A DNA stretch of 64,000 nt, taken from contig CBDBDQ010000005.1 in assembly GCA_965203905.1 (NCBI GenBank), positions 1,344,001-1,408,000 on the forward strand, given 5' to 3'. Origin of the DNA: Spirochaetia bacterium. Its GTDB lineage: Bacteria; Spirochaetota; Spirochaetia; SZUA-6; Bin103. Within the stretch, counting starts at the first letter, position 1, and the number at the start of each line of letters is the position of its first letter. The position numbers were made by a program, and so were the translations under genes. The notes under the pieces were generated by a model. The model had not been told where the DNA came from. It ran no database searches and worked only from the letters and a program-made list of their open reading frames with translations. This document shows positions 1 through 25,151 of this stretch, one piece after another.

Positions 1-372
1 AGGCCCGCCCCGCGACCCAGCGCGCCCTCGTCGCCGCCCACCGCGACGTGCTTGCGGAACAGGTACGGCAGCCGCTCCGGCGCCACGCCCCTGCCTTCGT
101 CGGTAACCGAGATCGCCACCTCGGCGCCATCGTGCAACGCCTCGACCCGGATCGGGGCGGACTCCTGAGAGTACCGCGCGGCGTTGGAGAACAGGTTGTT
201 CAGCACCTGCACGATGCGCCGCTCATCCGCCATCACCCGCGGCAGCTCCGGCGGCAGGTCGATGTGCAGGGTGTGCCGGGCGCCGCCACTCAGGAACGTG
301 CTGCGCGCCTGGTCCACCAGGGCGGACACCTCCACGGGACCGAGGTCCACCGACAGCGTGCCGGTGTCAATG
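1..372 (-). pseudogene. 3' part (HATPase_c region) of the sensor histidine kinase interrupted by the IS21 element; continues beyond the window edge
   Basis: Minus strand reads IDTGTLSVDLGPVEVSALVDQARSTF...ADERRIVQVLNNLFSNAARYS...VTDEGRGV (N-box and G1 box). It joins in frame to ...LLDAGR at 4534+ once the IS and one AATG copy are removed. Confidence 0.9.
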
Positions 373-697
373 TGCGTATTCCGGTGAAAAAAGCCACCCA
401 TTCCGGAAATAAAAAGCCACCGGGGAGTGGTCCGACCCTGCACCAGCCAGTATAGCGGGGTGGCTTTTTTGAATCAATCTGACAGTGCGCTCAGAGCGCT
501 CAGAGGGGGTTAAGAGCGGTAACGGCCACTTGGCCGGAGTCCTCCAGGGTGGCCTGTTGCCGGTGCCTGGTACACCGCCCTGGCTGAGGAGACTGCATCG
601 GCGGTGGTTGGATCTGTGTAAGCGACACCGTGATGCGCTGGAGAGTAGCATCTGGCTGGCGGAGCGCCGTGTCGAATGGTTTGTTCGAGGTGCAGGC

Positions 698-1958
698 GTG
701 GCGAATCGCGCGGGCCAGCGGCGCTGAGAAACGGCGTTGACGGGCATTTTTCGGATGTTCGGGGGTACCCTGGAGTACCGCCGCGGGTTGGGAAGGGCCT
801 CAGGGGGCCGCTGAGAGGCTGACTCTGACGCCGAGCGGCGCGCTGACGGCGAAACGGCGGTGGCGGCCGGCGGCGGAGGGGTGCGAATGCCGCGATCGCG
901 GGCGCGACGGTGTTCATGCTGGCGTGCTGCCGCGACCTCGACCGGTGGCCCGGCGGCAGGCAGCGGTAGTCGGCGCGGAACAGCAACCGGCGACCGCACG
1001 CGGTGCCTTCGATTTGTGGGTCCAGGCGGAGCCGGTGCGGGCGGACCGCGCGGGCCAGCGGCGCTGAGAAACGGCGTTGACGGGCATTTTTCGGATGTTC
1101 GGGGGTACCCTGGAGTACCGCCGCGGGTTGGGAAGGGCCTCAGGGGGCCGCTGAGAGGCTGACTCTGACGCCGAGCGGCGCGCTGACGGCGAAACGGCGG
1201 TGGCGGCCGGCGGTAGAGGGGTGCGAATGCCGCGATCGCGGGCGCGACGGTGTTCATGCTGGCGTGCTGCCGCGACCTCGACCGGTGGCCCGGCGGCAGG
1301 CAGCGGTAGTTGGCTCGGAATAGCAACCGACAATCGCTCGCGGGGTGCCCTTCGATTGCGGGTCCAGGCGGACGCCGGTGTGGCGGACCGCGCGGGCCAG
1401 TGGCGCTGAGAAACGGCGTTGACGGGCATTTTTCGGATGTTCGGGGGTACCCTGGAGTACCGCCGCGGGTTGGGAAGGGCCTCAGGGGGCCGCTGAGAGG
1501 CTGACTCTGACGCCGAGCGGCGCGCTGACGGCGAAACGGCGGTGGCGGCCGGCGGTAGAGGGGTGCGAATGCCGCGATCGCGGGCGCGACGGTGTTCATG
1601 CTGGCGTGCTGCCGCGACCTCGACCGGTGGCCCGGCGGCAGGCAGCGGTAGTTGGCTCGGAATAGCAACCGACAATCGCTCGCGGGGTGCCCTTCGATTG
1701 CGGGTCCAGGCGGACGCCGGTGTGGCGGACCGCGCGGGCCAGTGGCGCTGAGAAACGGCGTTGACGGGCATTTTTCGGATGTTCGGGGGTACCCTGGAGT
1801 ACCGCCGCGGGTTGGGAAGGGCCTCAGGGGGCCGCTGAGAAGCCGACCCTGACGCCGAGCGGCGCGCTGACGGCCAAACAGCGCTGCCAGACGGTCGTGG
1901 AGGGGTCCGCATGCCCGAGATCGCCGCCGCGACGGTGCTCGTTGCTGCCGCGACCTCG
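698..1958. repeat. Tandem array of ~340-342-bp units inside the IS21 element (3 full copies plus a partial, degenerating copy)
   Basis: Anchor GCGCTGAGAAACGGCGTTGACGGGCATTTTTCGGATG recurs at 721, 1061, 1403 and 1745 (periods 340, 342, 342). Confidence 0.95.
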
Positions 1959-2029
1959 TGGTGGACCACGGAGCGCCGCGCGCGGCAGCACGGCTCCTGC
2001 CCGGCGCGGTCGTGGCGCCGGCCGGGGCG

Positions 2030-2791
2030 CTATCCCAGCGGCTCGGCTGGATCCCGGTTGGCGCGCTCGGCATACAGCTTGCGCACCGAATCTCCTTCCA
2101 GGTCGATGCGGTGGGCGCCGTGCACGAGGCGATCACAGATCGCGTCGGCGATGGTGGGCTCGCCGATCACCTCATGCCAGGACGACACCGGCAACTGCGA
2201 CACCATCAGCGTCGAGGCTCGACCGTGGCGATCTTCGAGCATCTCCAGCAGTGCCAGCCGCGCCAGTGCGTCCAGCGGCTCCAGCGCAAAGTCATCGATG
2301 ATCGTCAAAGCCTGCTTGCTGATCTTCTCCAGCTCGCGGACGTAACTGCCGTCAGCCTTGGCCAGGCGCAGTTCCGCGAACAGCCGCGAGGACGCATGGT
2401 AGCCGACCCGGAACCCGCGCAGACACGCCTGGTGGCCCAGTGCGGAGGCCAGGAAGCTCTTCCCGGAGCCACATTTGCCGGTGATGATCAGGTCCTGGTG
2501 GTGCTGCACCCAGCGGCAGTCGGCCAGCCGCAGCAACTGGTTCCGGTCCAGGTTGCGGCGCAGTGCGAAGTCGACCTCCTCGATGGCGGCCGGGTAGCGA
2601 AAACGGGCCGCCTTCAGCAGCCGCTTCAGCCGCCGCTCATGGCGGTCGTCCCACTCGGCATCCACCAGGTGAGCCAGCAACTCGTCGGCGGTCCACTGGC
2701 CCTGGGTGTCGAGGCTGGTGCGCAACGCCCGCGCCATGCCGTGCAGGCGCATCTGGTCGAGCTTGTGGAGGGTAGCTTGGTTATTGGTCAT
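2030..2791 (-). CDS. istB: IS21 helper AAA+ ATPase IstB
   Basis: MTNNQATLHKLDQMRLHGM..., Walker A GKCGSGKS, Walker B IIDDF, and DAICDRLVHGAHRIDLEGDSVR. Confidence 0.95.
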   Translation of the reverse strand: MTNNQATLHKLDQMRLHGMARALRTSLDTQGQWTADELLAHLVDAEWDDRHERRLKRLLKAARFRYPAAIEEVDFALRRNLDRNQLLRLADCRWVQHHQDLIITGKCGSGKSFLASALGHQACLRGFRVGYHASSRLFAELRLAKADGSYVRELEKISKQALTIIDDFALEPLDALARLALLEMLEDRHGRASTLMVSQLPVSSWHEVIGEPTIADAICDRLVHGAHRIDLEGDSVRKLYAERANRDPAEPLG

Positions 2792-2804
2792 CGTCGGACC
2801 CCCC

Positions 2805-4361
2805 TCAGTGGTAGTAGCGGCTGCCACGCACGTTGTCATGGCTGGGGAAGCTCAGCGGCTGCTGCTCTTGCTCCTCCTCCAAGCCCAGCTTCAGCATGTT
2901 CTGAATGCGGCGGTAGGAGCACAGACCGTAGGACAGCGCCCGCCGGCAGGCGCGATCGAGCCGCGCTGCGCCGTAGCTCTTCTCCAGGTTCAGGATGCCG
3001 AGGCAGGCACGGAACCCCTGCGGCGGGTACTTGGCGTCCCCTAGCACCTGCTCGATCACCGCCTCGACGTTGGGGCCGAGCGCCCGTCCCCAACGCAGAA
3101 ATCGTTCCGGACTCCACTCGGCGTACCAGCGGTGCTGCGGCGGCATGTGGTCGGGCAGCGTGGTGTAGCCACCCGGACGGCGATCACGCTGGTACTCGGC
3201 GATGCGCACGTTGTCGTAGTAGATCGTGACGGTGCGCTCGTCGTACAGCAGTTTCACCTTGGTGCGCGGATCGCGGGTGCGTAGTTGCCAGGGCACGCTG
3301 TAGTGGTGCCGGTCTTCGCGCAGCTCGACGTGATAGTTGAACCCGACCGTCACTTCGCGGGTCTGCTGCAGCGGGAAGTGGTGCGCAGGCAACGGCGCCA
3401 GGGCCGGCTGCTCGATCTGCTCGAACAGCTCACGGCGTGAGTAGGGCAGCCGCTGAAAGCGGCGCCGGTTGTGCTGCTCGAGCAGCGGCCTGATCGCCGC
3501 GTTGAGCGCCTCGAGCGAGTGGAAGGTACGATCACGCAACGGGGCGTAGATGCGCTGATAGGTCAGCCGCACCGCGTTCTCGACCAGAGCCTTGTCCCGT
3601 GCCTGGCGGACGCGGGCGGGCATGATGACGAGCCCATAGTGCTCGGCGAACGCGTCGAAGGTGGGATTGATGCCCGGCTCATAGGGGTCTGAGCGGCTCA
3701 CGGCGCTGCGCAGGTTGTCCGGGATGATGACCTGCGGGCAGCCGCCGCAGTAGCGCAGCGCGCGCTCGTTGGAGCGGATCCAGTCCTCGCTCTGTTGCGT
3801 GGCGCTGGCCTCCACGTAGGTCAGCTCGCTGGCCCCGAGGATCGCGACGAAGGTTTCCACCGCCTGCTCCTTGCCGCCCTCCGGGTCCACGATCGCCAGC
3901 CGGTCGCCGGCGTAGTCGACGAACAGCTTCTCGCCGGCCTTGTGGTCGATGTGCATGGCCACCTCGGCGCTCTTGCGCCAGCGGTGGAAATGGTGGCAGA
4001 ACTGGCTGTTCTGATAGCCGTCCGGGTGTTCGCGCAGGTACTCCTCCCAGAGCAACTGCAGCGTCACTCCCTTGCGCCGCAGCTCCTTGACCATCATCGG
4101 AAACCGCTCGACCAGCCGCTCATAGCGCGCGTTGGTGCGCGCCGCACGATTGCCCTCCAACACGCTCAGCAACTCGCTGTCGGGCAACTCCTGCGCCTGC
4201 TCCCAGGTCAGTCCGCTGCCGCGGAAGCACTCCAGGTACTTCGCCACCGCGGTGCGCGACACCTGCAGCGCGCGGCCAATCGCTCGCTCACTCAGACCGG
4301 TGGTCACCCCGTAGCGGATGACCTCCTTGATCTTCTCCATGTTGATCCTCCTGCGTGCCAT
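2805..4361 (-). CDS. istA: IS21 DDE transposase IstA
   Basis: N-terminal HTH (SERAIGRALQVSRTAVAKY), FVDYAG, IIPDNLRSAV, ARVRQARDKALVENAV and HDNVRGSRYY. Confidence 0.95.
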   Translation of the reverse strand: MARRRINMEKIKEVIRYGVTTGLSERAIGRALQVSRTAVAKYLECFRGSGLTWEQAQELPDSELLSVLEGNRAARTNARYERLVERFPMMVKELRRKGVTLQLLWEEYLREHPDGYQNSQFCHHFHRWRKSAEVAMHIDHKAGEKLFVDYAGDRLAIVDPEGGKEQAVETFVAILGASELTYVEASATQQSEDWIRSNERALRYCGGCPQVIIPDNLRSAVSRSDPYEPGINPTFDAFAEHYGLVIMPARVRQARDKALVENAVRLTYQRIYAPLRDRTFHSLEALNAAIRPLLEQHNRRRFQRLPYSRRELFEQIEQPALAPLPAHHFPLQQTREVTVGFNYHVELREDRHHYSVPWQLRTRDPRTKVKLLYDERTVTIYYDNVRIAEYQRDRRPGGYTTLPDHMPPQHRWYAEWSPERFLRWGRALGPNVEAVIEQVLGDAKYPPQGFRACLGILNLEKSYGAARLDRACRRALSYGLCSYRRIQNMLKLGLEEEQEQQPLSFPSHDNVRGSRYYH

Positions 4362-4529
4362 GCATCTCCCTCCGGTACGGATCGGGAGAGCGTAGTGGAG
4401 GATCGGACCAGACCCCGTCCGGGCAGCAGCCTCAAATTGGCTTTTTTCCGCCGGACGGGTGGCTTTTTATTTCCGGACGGCTGGCTCCCTTATAATCGGA
4501 TCAGTGGCTCTTTTGCACCGGATTCTGCA

Positions 4530-5669
4530 AATGCGACCGGCATCGAGCAGATCCCTGATCAGGCCGTCCATGTAATCGGCCTGCTGGTCGATGATGCGGA
4601 AGAACTGCCGCACCTCGGCCGGGTCCACCACGCGCAGGTTGCCCAGCGCAGTGGCCGCCAGCCCCTTGATGGAGCTCAACGGCGCCCGCAACTCGTGACT
4701 CACCATCCCCAGGAACTCCGCCCGCTGGCGCTCCAGCTCCTCCAGCGGTCCCAGGTCCTGAAGGGTCACGACCAACGACTCGACGGTACCGCCTTCGAAC
4801 TTGATCGGCGTCGCGTTCATCAGCGTCGTCACGCTCCTGCCGTCGTCCACCGACAGTACGATTTCCTCGGCGCGCACCGTGGTGGCGCTGCGCAGCGCCG
4901 CCGCCAGGGGGAACTCGTCAGAGTTGATCTCCTGCCCATCGGCGCGCCGGCAGGTCACCACCTGTAGCAGCTCCTCCATTGTCTGCCCCGGATCGAGCAG
5001 GTCCCTGACGATCCGCCGCGCCTCCTGGTTGTGCGAGACCAATTGCGCGGTCCTGGCATCGAACACCACGACGCCCACCGGGGAGGTGTCGATCAGGGCC
5101 TCCAGGTCGGCCCGCACCCGCTGCTCGTCGCGGTGCGTACGGGCGTTGGCGATCGCGGTCGCGGCCTGCGAGGCGAACAGCACCAGCACCTCCTCGTCCT
5201 CGCCCGAATACTCCTGTCCTTCTTCCTTGTCGCCGAGAAAGAAGTTGCCGATCAGCACCCCGCGATGGCGCATCGGCGTTCCCTGGAAGGTCTTTGCGGT
5301 TATGAAGTCCGAACGAAAGCCGAGCGACTGCACGTAGGCGGGCAGGTCCCGCACGCGCAGCGGGGAGGGCAGATCTCGCAAGTGTTTGAACAGCTTCATT
5401 CCGTCCGGCCAGTCCTTCAACCCCCGGCGCTCCTCCGGCGTGAGGCCGCACATGAGAAGGTCATCCAGTTTCCCCGCCTCGTCGACGGTGGTGATCAACG
5501 CATAGCGGGAGCCGGTGAGAGCGCGCGCGTTCTCGGCGATCTCGTGCAGGACGGTGTCGATATCGAGGCTCGCGCTGACGCGCAGCGCCGCCGCGCTCAG
5601 GTTCGAGATACGGTTGCGCAGCGCCTCATTCTCCCGGCCGAGCTCGTCTGCACTCTTCAATGGGCCCAT
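4530..5669 (-). pseudogene. 5' part of a GAF-PAS sensor histidine kinase (through HisKA), disrupted by IS21
   Basis: GAF region, PAS (LIDTSPVGVVVFDA) and H-box EFLGMVSHELRAPLSSIKG. The ORF runs into the IS end after DAGRI. Confidence 0.9.
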
Positions 5670-5954
5670 CCCCGTCGCGCCCCGTCGCCATGCGGTTCGA
5701 CTTCACCGGGGTGCGCACTGGTGCTGCCGAACCGTCCCATTTGGGCGAGTCCCAACGGGAATCAACAATATCGCCACTGTTTCTATCCCATTATACACAC
5801 TATGATCACCATGTTCCTCCTACAATCTCGATATGATCGCGATTGGTCACGCGGGGCAGGATGCAACGCGATGCCTATTTGAGGTCGAGCACGAAACGCG
5901 TGGCCGCCCCCGGTGGCGGGCGGGCGGCCGTGTCCGGATGCGACAGACGGACAC

Positions 5955-5983
5955 TTGCATCCTGCACGGTATTGCCGTACATA
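5955..5983 (+). promoter_or_regulatory. Putative sigma70 promoter with overlapping inverted repeat (candidate higBA autorepression operator)
   Basis: TTGCAT-N17-TACATA lies just before the higB ATG. An imperfect inverted repeat TGCACGG-TATTG-CCGTACA overlaps it. Confidence 0.45.
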
Positions 5984-5991
5984 CGCGGCAC

Positions 5992-6138
5992 ATGATCGTC
6001 CGTTCCATTCGCCATCGGGGCCTGCGCCAGCTCTACGAGAACGACTCGTCCCGGCTGCTGAAACAGGACCTCGTGGAGCGGGTGCGCGGCATCCTGGCCG
6101 CGCTGGCCATGGCGGACAACATGGAGGGGTTCATTTGA
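5992..6138 (+). pseudogene. higB: Truncated HigB/RelE-family toxin (48 aa)
   Basis: MIVRSIRHRGLRQLYENDSSRLLKQDLVERVRGILAAL is a typical HigB N-terminus and the C-terminal half is missing. Its stop overlaps the higA start (TGATG). Confidence 0.75.
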
Positions 6139-6443
6139 TGACCAGCGGCGGCATCAAGATGGGGATGGCTCCCCCGCATCCCGGAACCTTCATCCGCATC
6201 GAGGCCCTTGAGGAGTTGGGGTTGAGCGTTTCCGCGGCGGCGCGGATTCTGGGCGTGCGCCGTGCGACGCTCTCCGACGTGCTGAACGGCAACGCGTCGC
6301 TTTCGCCGGAAATGGCGATGCGGGTCGAGAAGGCGTTCGGTCTCAGCATGGACCTGCTGTTGCGGATGCAGGCATGGCACGACGCCATGCAGATGCGGGC
6401 GCGGGCCGACGAAATCGACGTTCAGCGGTATCAGCCGGCATGA
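6138..6443 (+). CDS. higA: HigA-family antitoxin (HTH)
   Basis: PPHPGTFIRIEALEELGLSVSAAARILGVRRATLSDVLNGNASLSPEMAMRVEKAFG...LLRMQAWHD. Confidence 0.92.
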   Translation: MTSGGIKMGMAPPHPGTFIRIEALEELGLSVSAAARILGVRRATLSDVLNGNASLSPEMAMRVEKAFGLSMDLLLRMQAWHDAMQMRARADEIDVQRYQPA

Positions 6444-13000: not shown

Positions 13001-14734
13001 GACGGCGCTACCGGCAGCACCGGAATGAGCGCTCCCAACGGCGCATGGGACGTGATGGTAAGGGAAGATGGCCTGACCGTGGATACCAGCACCAGTCCGT
13101 GGACCATCTCAGCGCGATCGACCGGGACCATCAACGACCGCGACTTCAACTTCGAGGATTTCACCGGGGAAGACGACACAACGCCACCGCCTCCGCCGCC
13201 GCCGCCGCCGCCTCCTCCGCCGCCGCCTCCTCCGCCGCCGCCGCCTCCTCCGCCTCCTCCTCCTCCTCCGCCGCCTCCGCCGCCTCCTCCGCCTCCGCCT
13301 CCGCCTCCGCCGCCGCCGCCGCCTCCTCCGCCGCCTCCGCCGGAACCGCCGGAACCACCGGAGCCGCCAGAACCGCCGGAGCCGCCAGAACCACCAGAAC
13401 CGCCAGAACCACCAGAACCGCCGGAGCCACCGGAACCGCCGGAACCGCCAGAACCACCGGAACCACCAGAACCGCCAGAGCCGCCAGAACCGCCGGAGCC
13501 GCCAGAACCGCCAGAACCGCCAGAACCACCGGAACCACCAGAGCCGCCAGAACCGCCAGAACCACCAGAGCCGCCGGAACCGCCGGAACCACCAGAACCA
13601 CCGGAGCCGCCAGAACCGCCAGAACCACCAGAACCGCCAGAACCGCCGGAACCGCCGGAACCACCAGAGCCGCCGGAACCGCCAGAACCGCCAGAACCAC
13701 CGGAACCGCCGGAACCACCAGAACCACCAGAACCACCAGAACCACCGGAACCACCAGAACCGCCAGAGCCGCCAGAACCGCCAGAGCCGCCAGAACCGCC
13801 AGAACCGCCAGAACCGCCAGAGCCGGAGGGTCCCTTCATTGAAGAGTTCGCGCCCCGCGCAGCCCTTTATGAGGTCCTGCCAGACTTTCTGCTGCGTCTG
13901 ATGCGGCCCACGCAGATGTGCCCCTCATCCGCGGGCTGGGGCATAGCGGGCCGGATATCGGGCGGTAACGGGTCATACACAGCGCGACGCTCGACGGTGG
14001 GTGCGTCGTACGACTTCGACCGTCTGGATACCAAGGCGGGTGTGAACCTCGGCCTTGGCAGCGAGGTAACTGGAGGGGCTTCGGCGCGCTACCTGAGCAG
14101 TACGGCGAACGTTTCCGCTCCCACGGGGGGAGGAACGATAACCGCCCAGGGGGTCGGCGCCGTGGCCGGCGTTTTCTGGCACAGCGAGAGCAACTTCTAC
14201 GCCGCCGGCTGCGGTTCTCTGGTGTACTTTGGTGTGGACTTCGACTCCAACAAGCGTGGCAGGCTCAAGACCGGCGCCGCGGCCACCGGGCACTCTCTGG
14301 GTGCTGAGTTGGGGTATGGGTTGGGCCTCGGCGCACACCTCGGCGTGACGCCTCATGCGTGGGTCTATTGGCCGAACATCGCCGTGGACGACTTCACGGA
14401 CGCGGTGAACTCACGCGTGTCGGTAAATGCCGCCGATCGCTTGATCGGCGGCATTGGGCTGGCGTTGGAGAGCACGCACCATTCGGGGACTGGAGAGATC
14501 TCGCTGCGTGGTGCGCTGGGCCTGGAGCATATCTTCGGTGGCACCGAGACGATCGCCGTGGTATCGGGAGAGAATCTGGTGTCGGTGGCAGCCGAGAACG
14601 GGATTTGGATTGGTCTTGACAGCGCCTATCGGCAGGAAGACTTCTCCCTCGGCGCGGGTCTAAGGTCGGCGCTGCAGTTTGGCACCGATACCCAGTCATA
14701 CTCCGGCTACCTCAGGTTTGGAGTGCATTTTTAG
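10058..14734 (+). CDS. Autotransporter adhesin-like protein: repetitive Gly/Thr/Asp-rich beta-helix passenger, polyproline/EPP stalk and C-terminal beta-barrel
   Basis: Signal peptide (..AAAGAARA-QQ), repeated ITTTG..S.GI/GDI.IDV units, P53(EPP)53 linker, amphipathic barrel strands and terminal YLRFGVHF. Confidence 0.9.
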   Translation: MDLGRKHRFPDGAHCRAAFLLVVWLVAAAGAARAQQTAVCSNTPASNQRVECKEDSDSTSAIDIDLAGVSIETTTDHKQGVHGEHMGAGNVAIDVAASSGGDRSMVTTSGAGATAIQGAQYGTSGDAAIYLEDTTITTAGTNAMGVFGIIQQPNSQGNVVIDADAVDITTTGVNEFRSYGFGLYGRNQASVGNVNIDARSYTYHGTGYGVFGWRDEGGRGSVTISVEDSDITTTGTSGQGIERRGLDSHGIYARQLSEDATTGDVIDIDVKNTIITTEDMRSHGVSAWSIGPAAIDIDLEDVTIRSESTDTDTHPPHLFDTLSHGVFARNAPYLTSGNTGDIRITDTGGDIITKGTQSYGIGALHESAVDDTDSLTRDNEGGITITTVRTAIDTSGPNSPAIHAEHQGSGDIWIIPQGVDIETTGLDGYGVGGLHEGTGDISLDVGYSILQEDETTTVVYSDITTAGESGSGVYGRHTGAGDITIDVEFADITTTGAKASGIEAFIGHTDLETDDPPSAAGNIDIDGGFFVTIEAVFHGVFVRHSGGAGRVDIDLTSPDITTTGTFGSNGVYVWRQGTDTGPVNVTVNRSDIITEGRSSHGVFVDHQGKDTADICIIVDGSSVGDIETAGYNSYGVRGFRNGGLDSVGTGTVKIDVRDLRITTTGSRGRGIDAYHTGTGDIDIDVEGGSINTSGELAYGIRARHQPIAKDEDDNFILRDGDITIDPTNVTITTSGVAADGIQGYHQSRGDLIIRPQDAIIRTLSRGIYRNTGTLANGIYGIHTGVGDLEIDARGGTIRTRGTYSYGIQGRHSGDGDVGITTDDSHSIITRGANAHGIVAYHFGTMDSRAMAVTVDGTVETRGAGANGVQIGALDSNGVPERVAGLDAEGYLRQSVTVNDSVHGGSGDAAGVFLAGGGRVYIGPAGTVGADSDIAIRASGGSPKLYVDMDLNGRRLAAVIGDDWIINDGGETTIVVNDVKLHDGATGSTGMSAPNGAWDVMVREDGLTVDTSTSPWTISARSTGTINDRDFNFEDFTGEDDTTPPPPPPPPPPPPPPPPPPPPPPPPPPPPPPPPPPPPPPPPPPPPPPPPPPPPPEPPEPPEPPEPPEPPEPPEPPEPPEPPEPPEPPEPPEPPEPPEPPEPPEPPEPPEPPEPPEPPEPPEPPEPPEPPEPPEPPEPPEPPEPPEPPEPPEPPEPPEPPEPPEPPEPPEPPEPPEPPEPPEPPEPPEPPEPPEPPEPPEPPEPPEPPEPPEPPEPEGPFIEEFAPRAALYEVLPDFLLRLMRPTQMCPSSAGWGIAGRISGGNGSYTARRSTVGASYDFDRLDTKAGVNLGLGSEVTGGASARYLSSTANVSAPTGGGTITAQGVGAVAGVFWHSESNFYAAGCGSLVYFGVDFDSNKRGRLKTGAAATGHSLGAELGYGLGLGAHLGVTPHAWVYWPNIAVDDFTDAVNSRVSVNAADRLIGGIGLALESTHHSGTGEISLRGALGLEHIFGGTETIAVVSGENLVSVAAENGIWIGLDSAYRQEDFSLGAGLRSALQFGTDTQSYSGYLRFGVHF
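13184..13828 (+). repeat. 53 consecutive Pro codons (13184-13342) followed by 53 Glu-Pro-Pro units (13343-13819) and Glu-Pro-Glu
   Basis: Counted from coordinates: 159 bp of CCN codons, then 477 bp of GAR-CCN-CCN with synonymous variation. Confidence 0.95.
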
Positions 14735-24419: not shown

Positions 24420-25151
24420 ATGAGTGAACCGGAATCCGAACACCTCGATCCCGAATCCCTGGTTGCGCGCATCATTGCGGAGTTGCGGGCCAACCCGCAG
24501 GCACAACGGTTGCTGCTGCGCGCGCTGCTGACCAACGAGTTCCTCGGCATGCCGGCACGCCTGGACCGCATCGAGAAGGACGTTGCGGAACTCAAGGTCG
24601 ATGTACGCCAGCTCAAGGTGGACGTGGGCCAGCTCAAGGTCGACGTGGGTCAGCTCAAGGTGGACGTGGGCCAGCTTACGGTCGACGTGGGCCAGCTTAA
24701 GGACAATGTGGGATCGCTCAAAGGATCCGACTTGGAGGTTCGGCTGCTGCGGAGAATTCGCCCGCTGCTCAGTCAACACCTCCAGCTCAGGCGCGCCCGC
24801 ATCGTGCACAGCGCGCTGCACCAGGCCGATACCGAGTTCGATGCTACGATCGCCGACGCTGCGGATGCCGGCCGGATCAGTTCCGACCAGGAGGACCGCA
24901 TCACTGCGACCGACGTCATCATGCATGCGCAACGGAGGCACCAACGGACTCGGGTCTGGGTAGCCGTCGAAGTGGCCGGCAGAGTCGACGCCGACGATAT
25001 CAGGCGCAGCCGGGAGACTGCGGCCACGCTTGCGGCAGTGTTCGGAGAGGAGGCAATACCGGTCGTGGCGGGGTATCGGATCGACACCGCAGACCGGAGC
25101 CGGGCCGACGCCGCGGGAGTGTGCTGCCTGGAAGTCCCCGAACGGACCTAG
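24420..25151 (+). CDS. Heptad-repeat coiled-coil protein with PD-(D/E)XK-like C-terminal domain
   Basis: (DVGQLKV)n heptads encoded by 21-bp repeats (~24590-24710), then LKGSDLE...TDVIM...VAVEVA...[10 protein letters not shown]. Confidence 0.7.

Follow-up and report, generated by a model that had tools for sequence, protein, structure and literature searches.

The IS21-family element that interrupts a sensor kinase gene in the window (the whole stretch of 64,000 nucleotides that was analysed) is a real and unusual, enlarged IS21. Its 3' region holds a tandem array, which we consider, with a probability of roughly 0.64, to be the tail of an IS3 element that was captured, amplified in tandem and carried along as passive cargo. 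Its genes and ends are those of an ordinary IS21: an IstA DDE transposase is followed by an IstB AAA+ ATPase (both above the NCBIfam cut-offs), the ends are CA with several short repeats ~23 bp apart, and target duplications flank independent insertions (AATG here; GCTTGA at a second copy). The istA-istB pair, the terminal CA, the direct repeats 23 bp apart and the target duplication are shared with IS21 and IS5376, according to the available part of PMC10122671. The compact two-gene body, which is typical of the family, if not strictly defining, is lacking. The features discussed below are the following.

1..372, minus strand: 3' part of the interrupted sensor kinase (HATPase_c), continuing past the window edge
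369..372, no strand: target duplication AATG, left copy
373..4529, minus strand: IS21-family element of 4,157 bp with TG...CA ends; identical copy at G000:C5:629942-634098 with other flanks
373..480, minus strand: right end of the IS21, carrying two transposase-box-like repeats 23 bp apart (388 and 411); identity among close relatives 83-95%
481..699, no strand: non-coding stretch ahead of the array, common to array-bearing relatives; 600-641 also matches another IS21 type beside its core
700..1039, no strand: unit 1, 340 bp
716..885, no strand: core 1 (~165 bp, common to IS3, IS21 and IS110 neighbourhoods)
966..1045, no strand: the part of unit 1 described as "variable", with 81% identity to 1306-1387 and 1648-1729
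1040..1381, no strand: unit 2, 342 bp
1056..1225, no strand: core 2, A/T period near 10.75 bp
1101..1119 (also 761-779, 1443-1461 and 1785-1803), no strand: central imperfect palindrome, whose homologue is the group II intron insertion site in the sister genome G005
1254..1256 (also 914-916 and 1596-1598), minus strand: where the IS3 transposase stop codon falls in the alignment, with a weak, decayed coding tail beyond
1382..1723, no strand: unit 3, 342 bp, one difference from unit 2
1398..1567, no strand: core 3
1724..1958, no strand: unit 4, partial but with the core whole
1740..1908, no strand: core 4
2030..2791, minus strand: istB helper ATPase, 253 aa (NF038214, 230 bits against a cut-off of 200; PF01695)
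2805..4361, minus strand: istA transposase, 518 aa (NF033546, 257 bits against a cut-off of 160)
4420..4529, minus strand: left end of the IS21, with boxes near 4514, 4468 and 4447
4530..4533, no strand: target duplication AATG, right copy
4534..5669, minus strand: 5' part of the interrupted sensor kinase (GAF, PAS, HisKA)

The enlarged element and its array

From istB to the right end the element measures 1,657 bp, whereas the median in relatives is 270 bp and only one of 93 is longer; the distances come from a survey of 160 IstB loci, among which a stop codon was found in 150 and a detectable right end in 93. The preliminary description of the window, made from its letters, had called IS21 members normally compact, and this agrees with the survey. 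The length of this region and the internal 342-bp tandem array set the element apart from its family, and a literature search whose scope left out most subscription papers and ISfinder found no IS21 with a long internal tandem array. The nearest named relatives of IstB (93-94%) are in a Spirochaetia genome, and the host genome has 66% GC; we therefore regard the host as a GC-rich spirochaete. A scan for sigma-70-like promoters gave one site near the right end (477-449) and none within the array. This site faces outwards and adjoins a transposase-box-like word at 458-470, which is an inverted second instance, 58 bp inside the right end, of the word at 387-399.

Excision of the IS together with one AATG restores the GAF-PAS-HisKA-HATPase frame, as expected from the clean duplication and in-frame kinase split described earlier. 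A second genomic copy is 100% identical over 4,157 bp and has other flanks with a 6-bp duplication; therefore the enlarged element moved as a unit, one of the two possibilities that had been proposed. The same IS ends were observed on further flanks in contigs of runs X4 and X7. A third IS21 copy in the host genome is broken and contains 2.6 units at about 82% identity; in this copy (L130:5883-7976) istB is frameshifted, istA is lost, and an IS110 abuts it. An array produced by faulty assembly would be consistent with the identity of the two full copies, since polishing could have erased copy-specific differences, and with the fact that none of the contig pieces listed spans the array. However, the units differ from each other, and diverged arrays are found in the third copy and in sister genomes. 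Furthermore, contig depth in run X1, which may be the source sample, is ~1x, 2x and 3x that of the IS body at sequence common to one, two and three units, respectively, ratios consistent with four units. Given the identical second copy and these ratios, the assembly error against which the preliminary description had warned is extremely improbable.

The three full units and one partial unit counted previously were recovered by TRF with a period of 342, 3.6 copies and 95% matches over 698-1937, at spacings of 340, 342 and 342 bp. The reported clustering of differences was also observed: units 1 and 2 differ at 19 positions, 15 of them in the last ~75 bp (window ~970-1043), and units 2 and 3 differ at one. 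Among the short inverted repeats named earlier, all three are present in the sequence, but CCGCGATCGCGG is absent from unit 4. The "variable" segment is 77-82% identical to the same segment in other arrays. Since it is homologous in all units, it is not a spacer, and it does not match the insertion-site flanks, a comparison proposed with the original description; the unique spacers between constant repeats that define a guide array were not found. The segment is a diverged homologue, either an older or a recombined version. The ~1.65 kb between istB and the right end contain no credible gene, in agreement with the earlier view. Two long ORFs nevertheless traverse the array (367-2136, 589 aa; 914-1969, 351 aa), and they were rejected as genes because they are Pfam-negative, homologous arrays have periods of 343 and 352, and the indels are of ~10-12 bp.

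Origin and behaviour of the repeated unit

Profile searches identified a ~165-bp core in each unit. Of 61 related genomes, 10 contain the core, all of them belonging to the host's family (9 of 23 family members and none of 37 from other families of the order); it was detected in none of 150 other genomes of the phylum, and at none of the 160 IstB loci surveyed. Outside the family, the best match among phages and plasmids had an E of 0.5, and pattern searches returned zero viral and zero metagenome matches. Genome-pattern matches were in Spirochaetia/Spirochaetales records in 2 of 2 and 6 of 7 cases, the seventh being an Acetobacter record with a pattern match only. In IS3 elements (L139, L140, L114) the core follows the transposase stop and precedes the right end; it is likewise placed in two IS21 types (L118 and L124; L113), and it is found in the opposite orientation just after IS110 genes (L116, L126, L161).

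A profile of four IS3 right ends, one of which had been found via the core so that the match is partly circular, matches all four units over ~210 nt with an E of about 1e-14. The match passes through the IS3 stop codon in units 1-3, so the units have the homology of a non-coding 3' end up to the stop codon that is expected of an IS3 right-end remnant, the IS3 concerned being of the same Spirochaetia family; the IS3 reference protein scores above the cut-off of NF033516. The IS3 terminal inverted repeat is absent, and the profile matches in window 373-2030 begin at position 192 of 510. L114 preserves a fossil of the nested IS3-in-IS21 state, in which an IS21-type end is followed by the core, then by the coding tail of an IS3 and finally by a remnant of istB. 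None of 3,000 control stretches aligns with this fossil as well as the part of the window beyond the core does. The IS3 coding tail gives a p of 0.01 through the fossil; compared directly with the window it is not significant (p about 0.05), which speaks against the IS3 origin, and the coding-tail profile, built from five "family" IS3 tails, is weakened by one of them (L175) having been read in a shifted frame. Among IS3 relatives, the core is present in 2 of 50 loci examined (from 80 fetched, with repeat copies dropped) and is absent from L167, an IS3 with a 97% identical transposase; it is thus not an original part of every IS3 relative. The stop codon and the one fossil suggest a transfer from IS3 to IS21.

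The array is probably the outcome of the following history. An IS3 with the ~165-bp core in its non-coding 3' end would have inserted near the 3' end of an IS21, and deletions would have removed the IS3 terminal repeat and nearly the whole transposase gene. A piece of ~340 bp (core, IS3 stop codon and decayed tail) would then have been duplicated head to tail, and unequal recombination would have added, removed and homogenised units in each lineage. The copies show that IstA/IstB mobilize the whole 4.16 kb, for which only the two ends are needed. The core would be a DNA-level feature, with its helical A/T rhythm and palindrome, and a landing site for other mobile elements; as passive cargo it would require neither an RNA nor a protein product. 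Among the three guesses of the preliminary description, namely a structured RNA array, a nested miniature inverted-repeat element (MITE) and slippage-derived filler, the last comes closest, with the unit being probably an amplified IS3 tail, and the other two found no support.

Unit number varies among close IS21 relatives (IstB 82-94%), from zero (L001, L002) through ~1 (L124) and ~1.3 (L118) to 2.6 (L130). Units are 91-99.7% identical within arrays and 74-82% between arrays, as would be expected under repeated unequal recombination. For the core, the rest of the unit and the four-fold degenerate sites of istB, identities are 80, 85 and 85%, 76, 76 and 76%, and 69, 76 and 85% in three relatives, and in the comparison with L124 the core is less conserved than the four-fold degenerate sites (P = 0.002). 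Neither core nor remainder of the unit is thus better conserved than these istB sites; within IS21 the unit diverges at the pace of synonymous sites, and its substitutions look neutral. Core indels are fewer than those of the neighbouring sequence in 3 of 4 comparisons (0-1 against 3-5); pure filler predicts neither this nor the helical rhythm described below. The persistence of multi-unit arrays in lineages about 25% apart also argues against passive cargo. Separately, a 142-bp repeat with 3.2 copies was observed at L317, where it lies outside a distant relative of the IS21, about 600 bp past its right end.

Decayed mosaics of nested IS elements are familiar, as are IS elements with passenger DNA. 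As in these, one IS would here have inserted within the non-essential end of another, been eroded by deletion and been carried along; in contrast to them, a non-coding piece would have been captured, which was then amplified in tandem and homogenised, and whose core recurs at the ends of several IS families. On the likely reading, IS ends would grow by nested insertion, decay, tandem amplification and reuse of landing sites, with several of the stages visible in one genus. Caution is advisable, as such arrays can mimic guide-RNA arrays.

Helical rhythm, intron landing and other readings

The core has a real A/T rhythm. Its mean spectrum peaks at 10.75 bp. Compared with 2,000 genome windows, 18 of 21 cores rank in the top 5%, and 17 of 21 do so when the controls are 350 non-coding-like windows of matched GC; these counts, and the gyrase counts below, overstate the evidence because the cores are homologues and not independent. 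Among more distant cores, one of five is clearly periodic. The whole unit is periodic as well (P = 0.0009), the strongest array signal at 10.66-10.68 bp being equal to 342/32, and GGCC recurs in the core consensus at steps of 11, 11, 20, 11, 21 and 12 bp. An attempt to express the spacings between cores as whole helical turns was rejected: the best period for four chosen spacings fell at the edge of the range (10.3), and the test, which left out spacings of 258, 387, 400, 468, 491 and 532, was given no weight.

The core thus has the about 10.75-bp GC/AT periodicity of a Mu-type gyrase site, and it might be a DNA-wrapping site like the strong gyrase site of Mu, recruiting gyrase or a bending protein, supercoiling the element and aiding the pairing of its ends; extra copies would then be favoured in a lengthened IS. 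We regard both the wrapping and the advantage of extra copies as unlikely. The mean peak equals the period of the E. coli gyrase motif (10.75 bp in the accessible part of PMC6379681), the size is similar to that of the Mu site (PMC10052514, from the part available), and most cores are periodic against both control sets, but the homology of the cores and the single clearly periodic distant core weaken the comparison. The near-helical steps of GGCC, the larger deletions of about 10-12 bp and the presence of the core in either orientation relative to the transposase gene would fit a wrapped DNA, whereas its substitutions look neutral and close IS21 and IS3 copies lack it altogether. Furthermore, the host's GyrA-type protein has six C-terminal repeats, the element that hosts the core has a Mu-like transposase, and IstA binds the ends in a supercoil-like geometry according to the portion of PMC10122671 consulted. 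The array, however, is off-centre in 4 kb, and the Mu site is most effective when central in its genome of 37 kb, as stated in the available part of PMC10052514.

A gyrase matrix was reconstructed by ourselves from 311 published cleavage sites of E. coli W3110 (first 150 kb; cross-validated r 0.82), taken from the PMC6379681 supplement as far as available. With both arms (130 bp), the matrix places the Mu cut site, which served as positive control, at the top of 1,872 positions, but only 1 of 27 cores has P < 0.05 (2 of 27 when flanks only are scored), the matrix being that of E. coli; the cores were thus not singled out. The one-arm score, which was chosen post hoc, is at P < 0.05 in 10 of 27 cores against GC-matched windows and in 7 of 27 against dinucleotide shuffles, with core scores of 2.9-4.0 below the 5.1 of Mu. 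A short stretch of the core also resembles part of the left arm of Mu, which may be due to chance. In its fullest form, with the ~165-bp core as a portable DNA-wrapping enhancer and miniature counterpart of the Mu gyrase site, swapped among IS3, IS21 and IS110 ends in one family, multiplied in phase in the lengthened IS21 to aid end pairing and used as a two-strand intron homing site, the proposal is quite unlikely, and an enhancer role for the core is improbable in either form. If gyrase or a bending protein were indeed recruited by the core, unrelated IS families would share a host-factor enhancer, of which the literature search gave no example; no periodic module common to IS families was found there either, most subscription papers being outside its scope.

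In the sister genome G005, 21 copies of a group II intron (identified by TIGR04416 and RF02005) have an intact 5' end, and 17 of these are inserted in the core palindrome, 10 of them on one strand and 7 on the opposite one; part of these loci may have arisen by duplication of a single block, and five further rows, of another intron type or another genome, were left out of the count. The remaining four copies are at unrelated sites with similar last six bases. One cluster (L119) holds three introns, and IS21 and IS110 copies also interrupt cores (L142, L252). At L119:3023-4938 an intron starts with GAGCG, not GTGCG; it has about 20 near-identical copies and a palindromic target used on both strands. 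One could suppose that the units persist because they serve as a decoy or landing pad, taking up group II introns and further IS elements and so sparing istA and istB, for which the 17 insertions on both strands and the triple cluster would speak. This is very unlikely: an intron that specializes on a multicopy neutral repeat fits the same pattern without benefit to the IS, the G005 loci are possibly duplicates, and the host genome G000 contains only 28-bp and 87-bp matches to the intron, with none of its units interrupted.

Repeated insertion of a MITE in tandem, highly improbable in our view, would account for cores that lie without any of 8 query proteins within about 2-5 kb (L112, L141, L255, L256, L258 and three G000 sites). 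Speaking against it are, in the window, the head-to-tail joins of the units, with no terminal inverted repeats or duplications seen between them, and, elsewhere, unit lengths and ends that vary among loci; moreover, the unit aligns to an internal part of the IS3 end. Transcription of the array and its cutting into structured ~340-nt RNAs, with the variable segment as guide, is hardly plausible, even though each unit has short palindromes, the two named hairpins pair in 80% of cells, and the region is present in RNA-labelled runs. Those runs (X4, X7) are assembled contigs with flat depth over the IS body and are uninformative on expression, and their coverage gaps inside the array carry no weight. 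The unit folds no better than shuffles on either strand (z = 0.86 and -0.34), the consensus fold of 21 homologous cores is -3.18 kcal/mol over 202 columns, and Rfam gave two matches only, with E of 6.2 and 8.8. The covariation analysis that had been recommended was run on the two palindromes and gave nothing above shuffles (one pair changed on both sides; 97 of 500 shuffles were as high). The variable segment, which a guide reading would need, is homologous across arrays and genomes (78-82%), and the array contains no sigma-70-like promoter in the scan described above. The tail of an IS3, amplified and carried passively, remains our preferred account.

Related repeats and neighbouring modules

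REP and BIME repeats are palindromic and non-coding, form tandem clusters and are targets of insertion. The window units resemble them in all these respects, but are far longer and tied to IS ends; BIMEs are linked to gyrase in the part of PMC6379681 available. As for group II introns homing into mobile elements (PMC8598171, available in part), the intron is likewise in a multicopy mobile-element sequence, whereas here the target is a palindrome used on both strands and belongs to a non-coding module common to several IS families.

Other modules were observed at IS 3' ends. An IS3 of the host (G000:C5:5380101-5382945) holds half a core, an istB tail and a 95-aa ORF in its 3' end, and its first 251 bp are found at four more places. 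The Pfam-negative 95-aa ORF recurs at 78-87% identity in IS3 elements as well as in both IS21 types, always within the 3' end (L002:4769-5056; L111, L113, L117-L122, L143, L261; G000:C5:5382052-5382336). In two sister genomes (L111, L117, L119, L120, L122), blocks of IS110, 95-aa ORF and core lie upstream of long ORFs, which resemble ABC-transporter solute-binding genes; blocks and ORFs were possibly duplicated together. Another 3'-end module, at L174, L114:9300-9400 and G000:C5:2311450-2311550, consists of a G-rich tract followed by the DnaA-box-like word TGTGGATAA.

Elsewhere in the window, two small ORFs at 5833-6443, of which the second has an HTH_3 domain, resemble a toxin-antitoxin pair. 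Tandem runs of 3 bp and 9 bp with about 54 copies each (13182-13825) probably encode a low-complexity protein linker, and a 21-bp tandem repeat with 5.3 copies (24591-24721) is probably a coiled-coil coding repeat.
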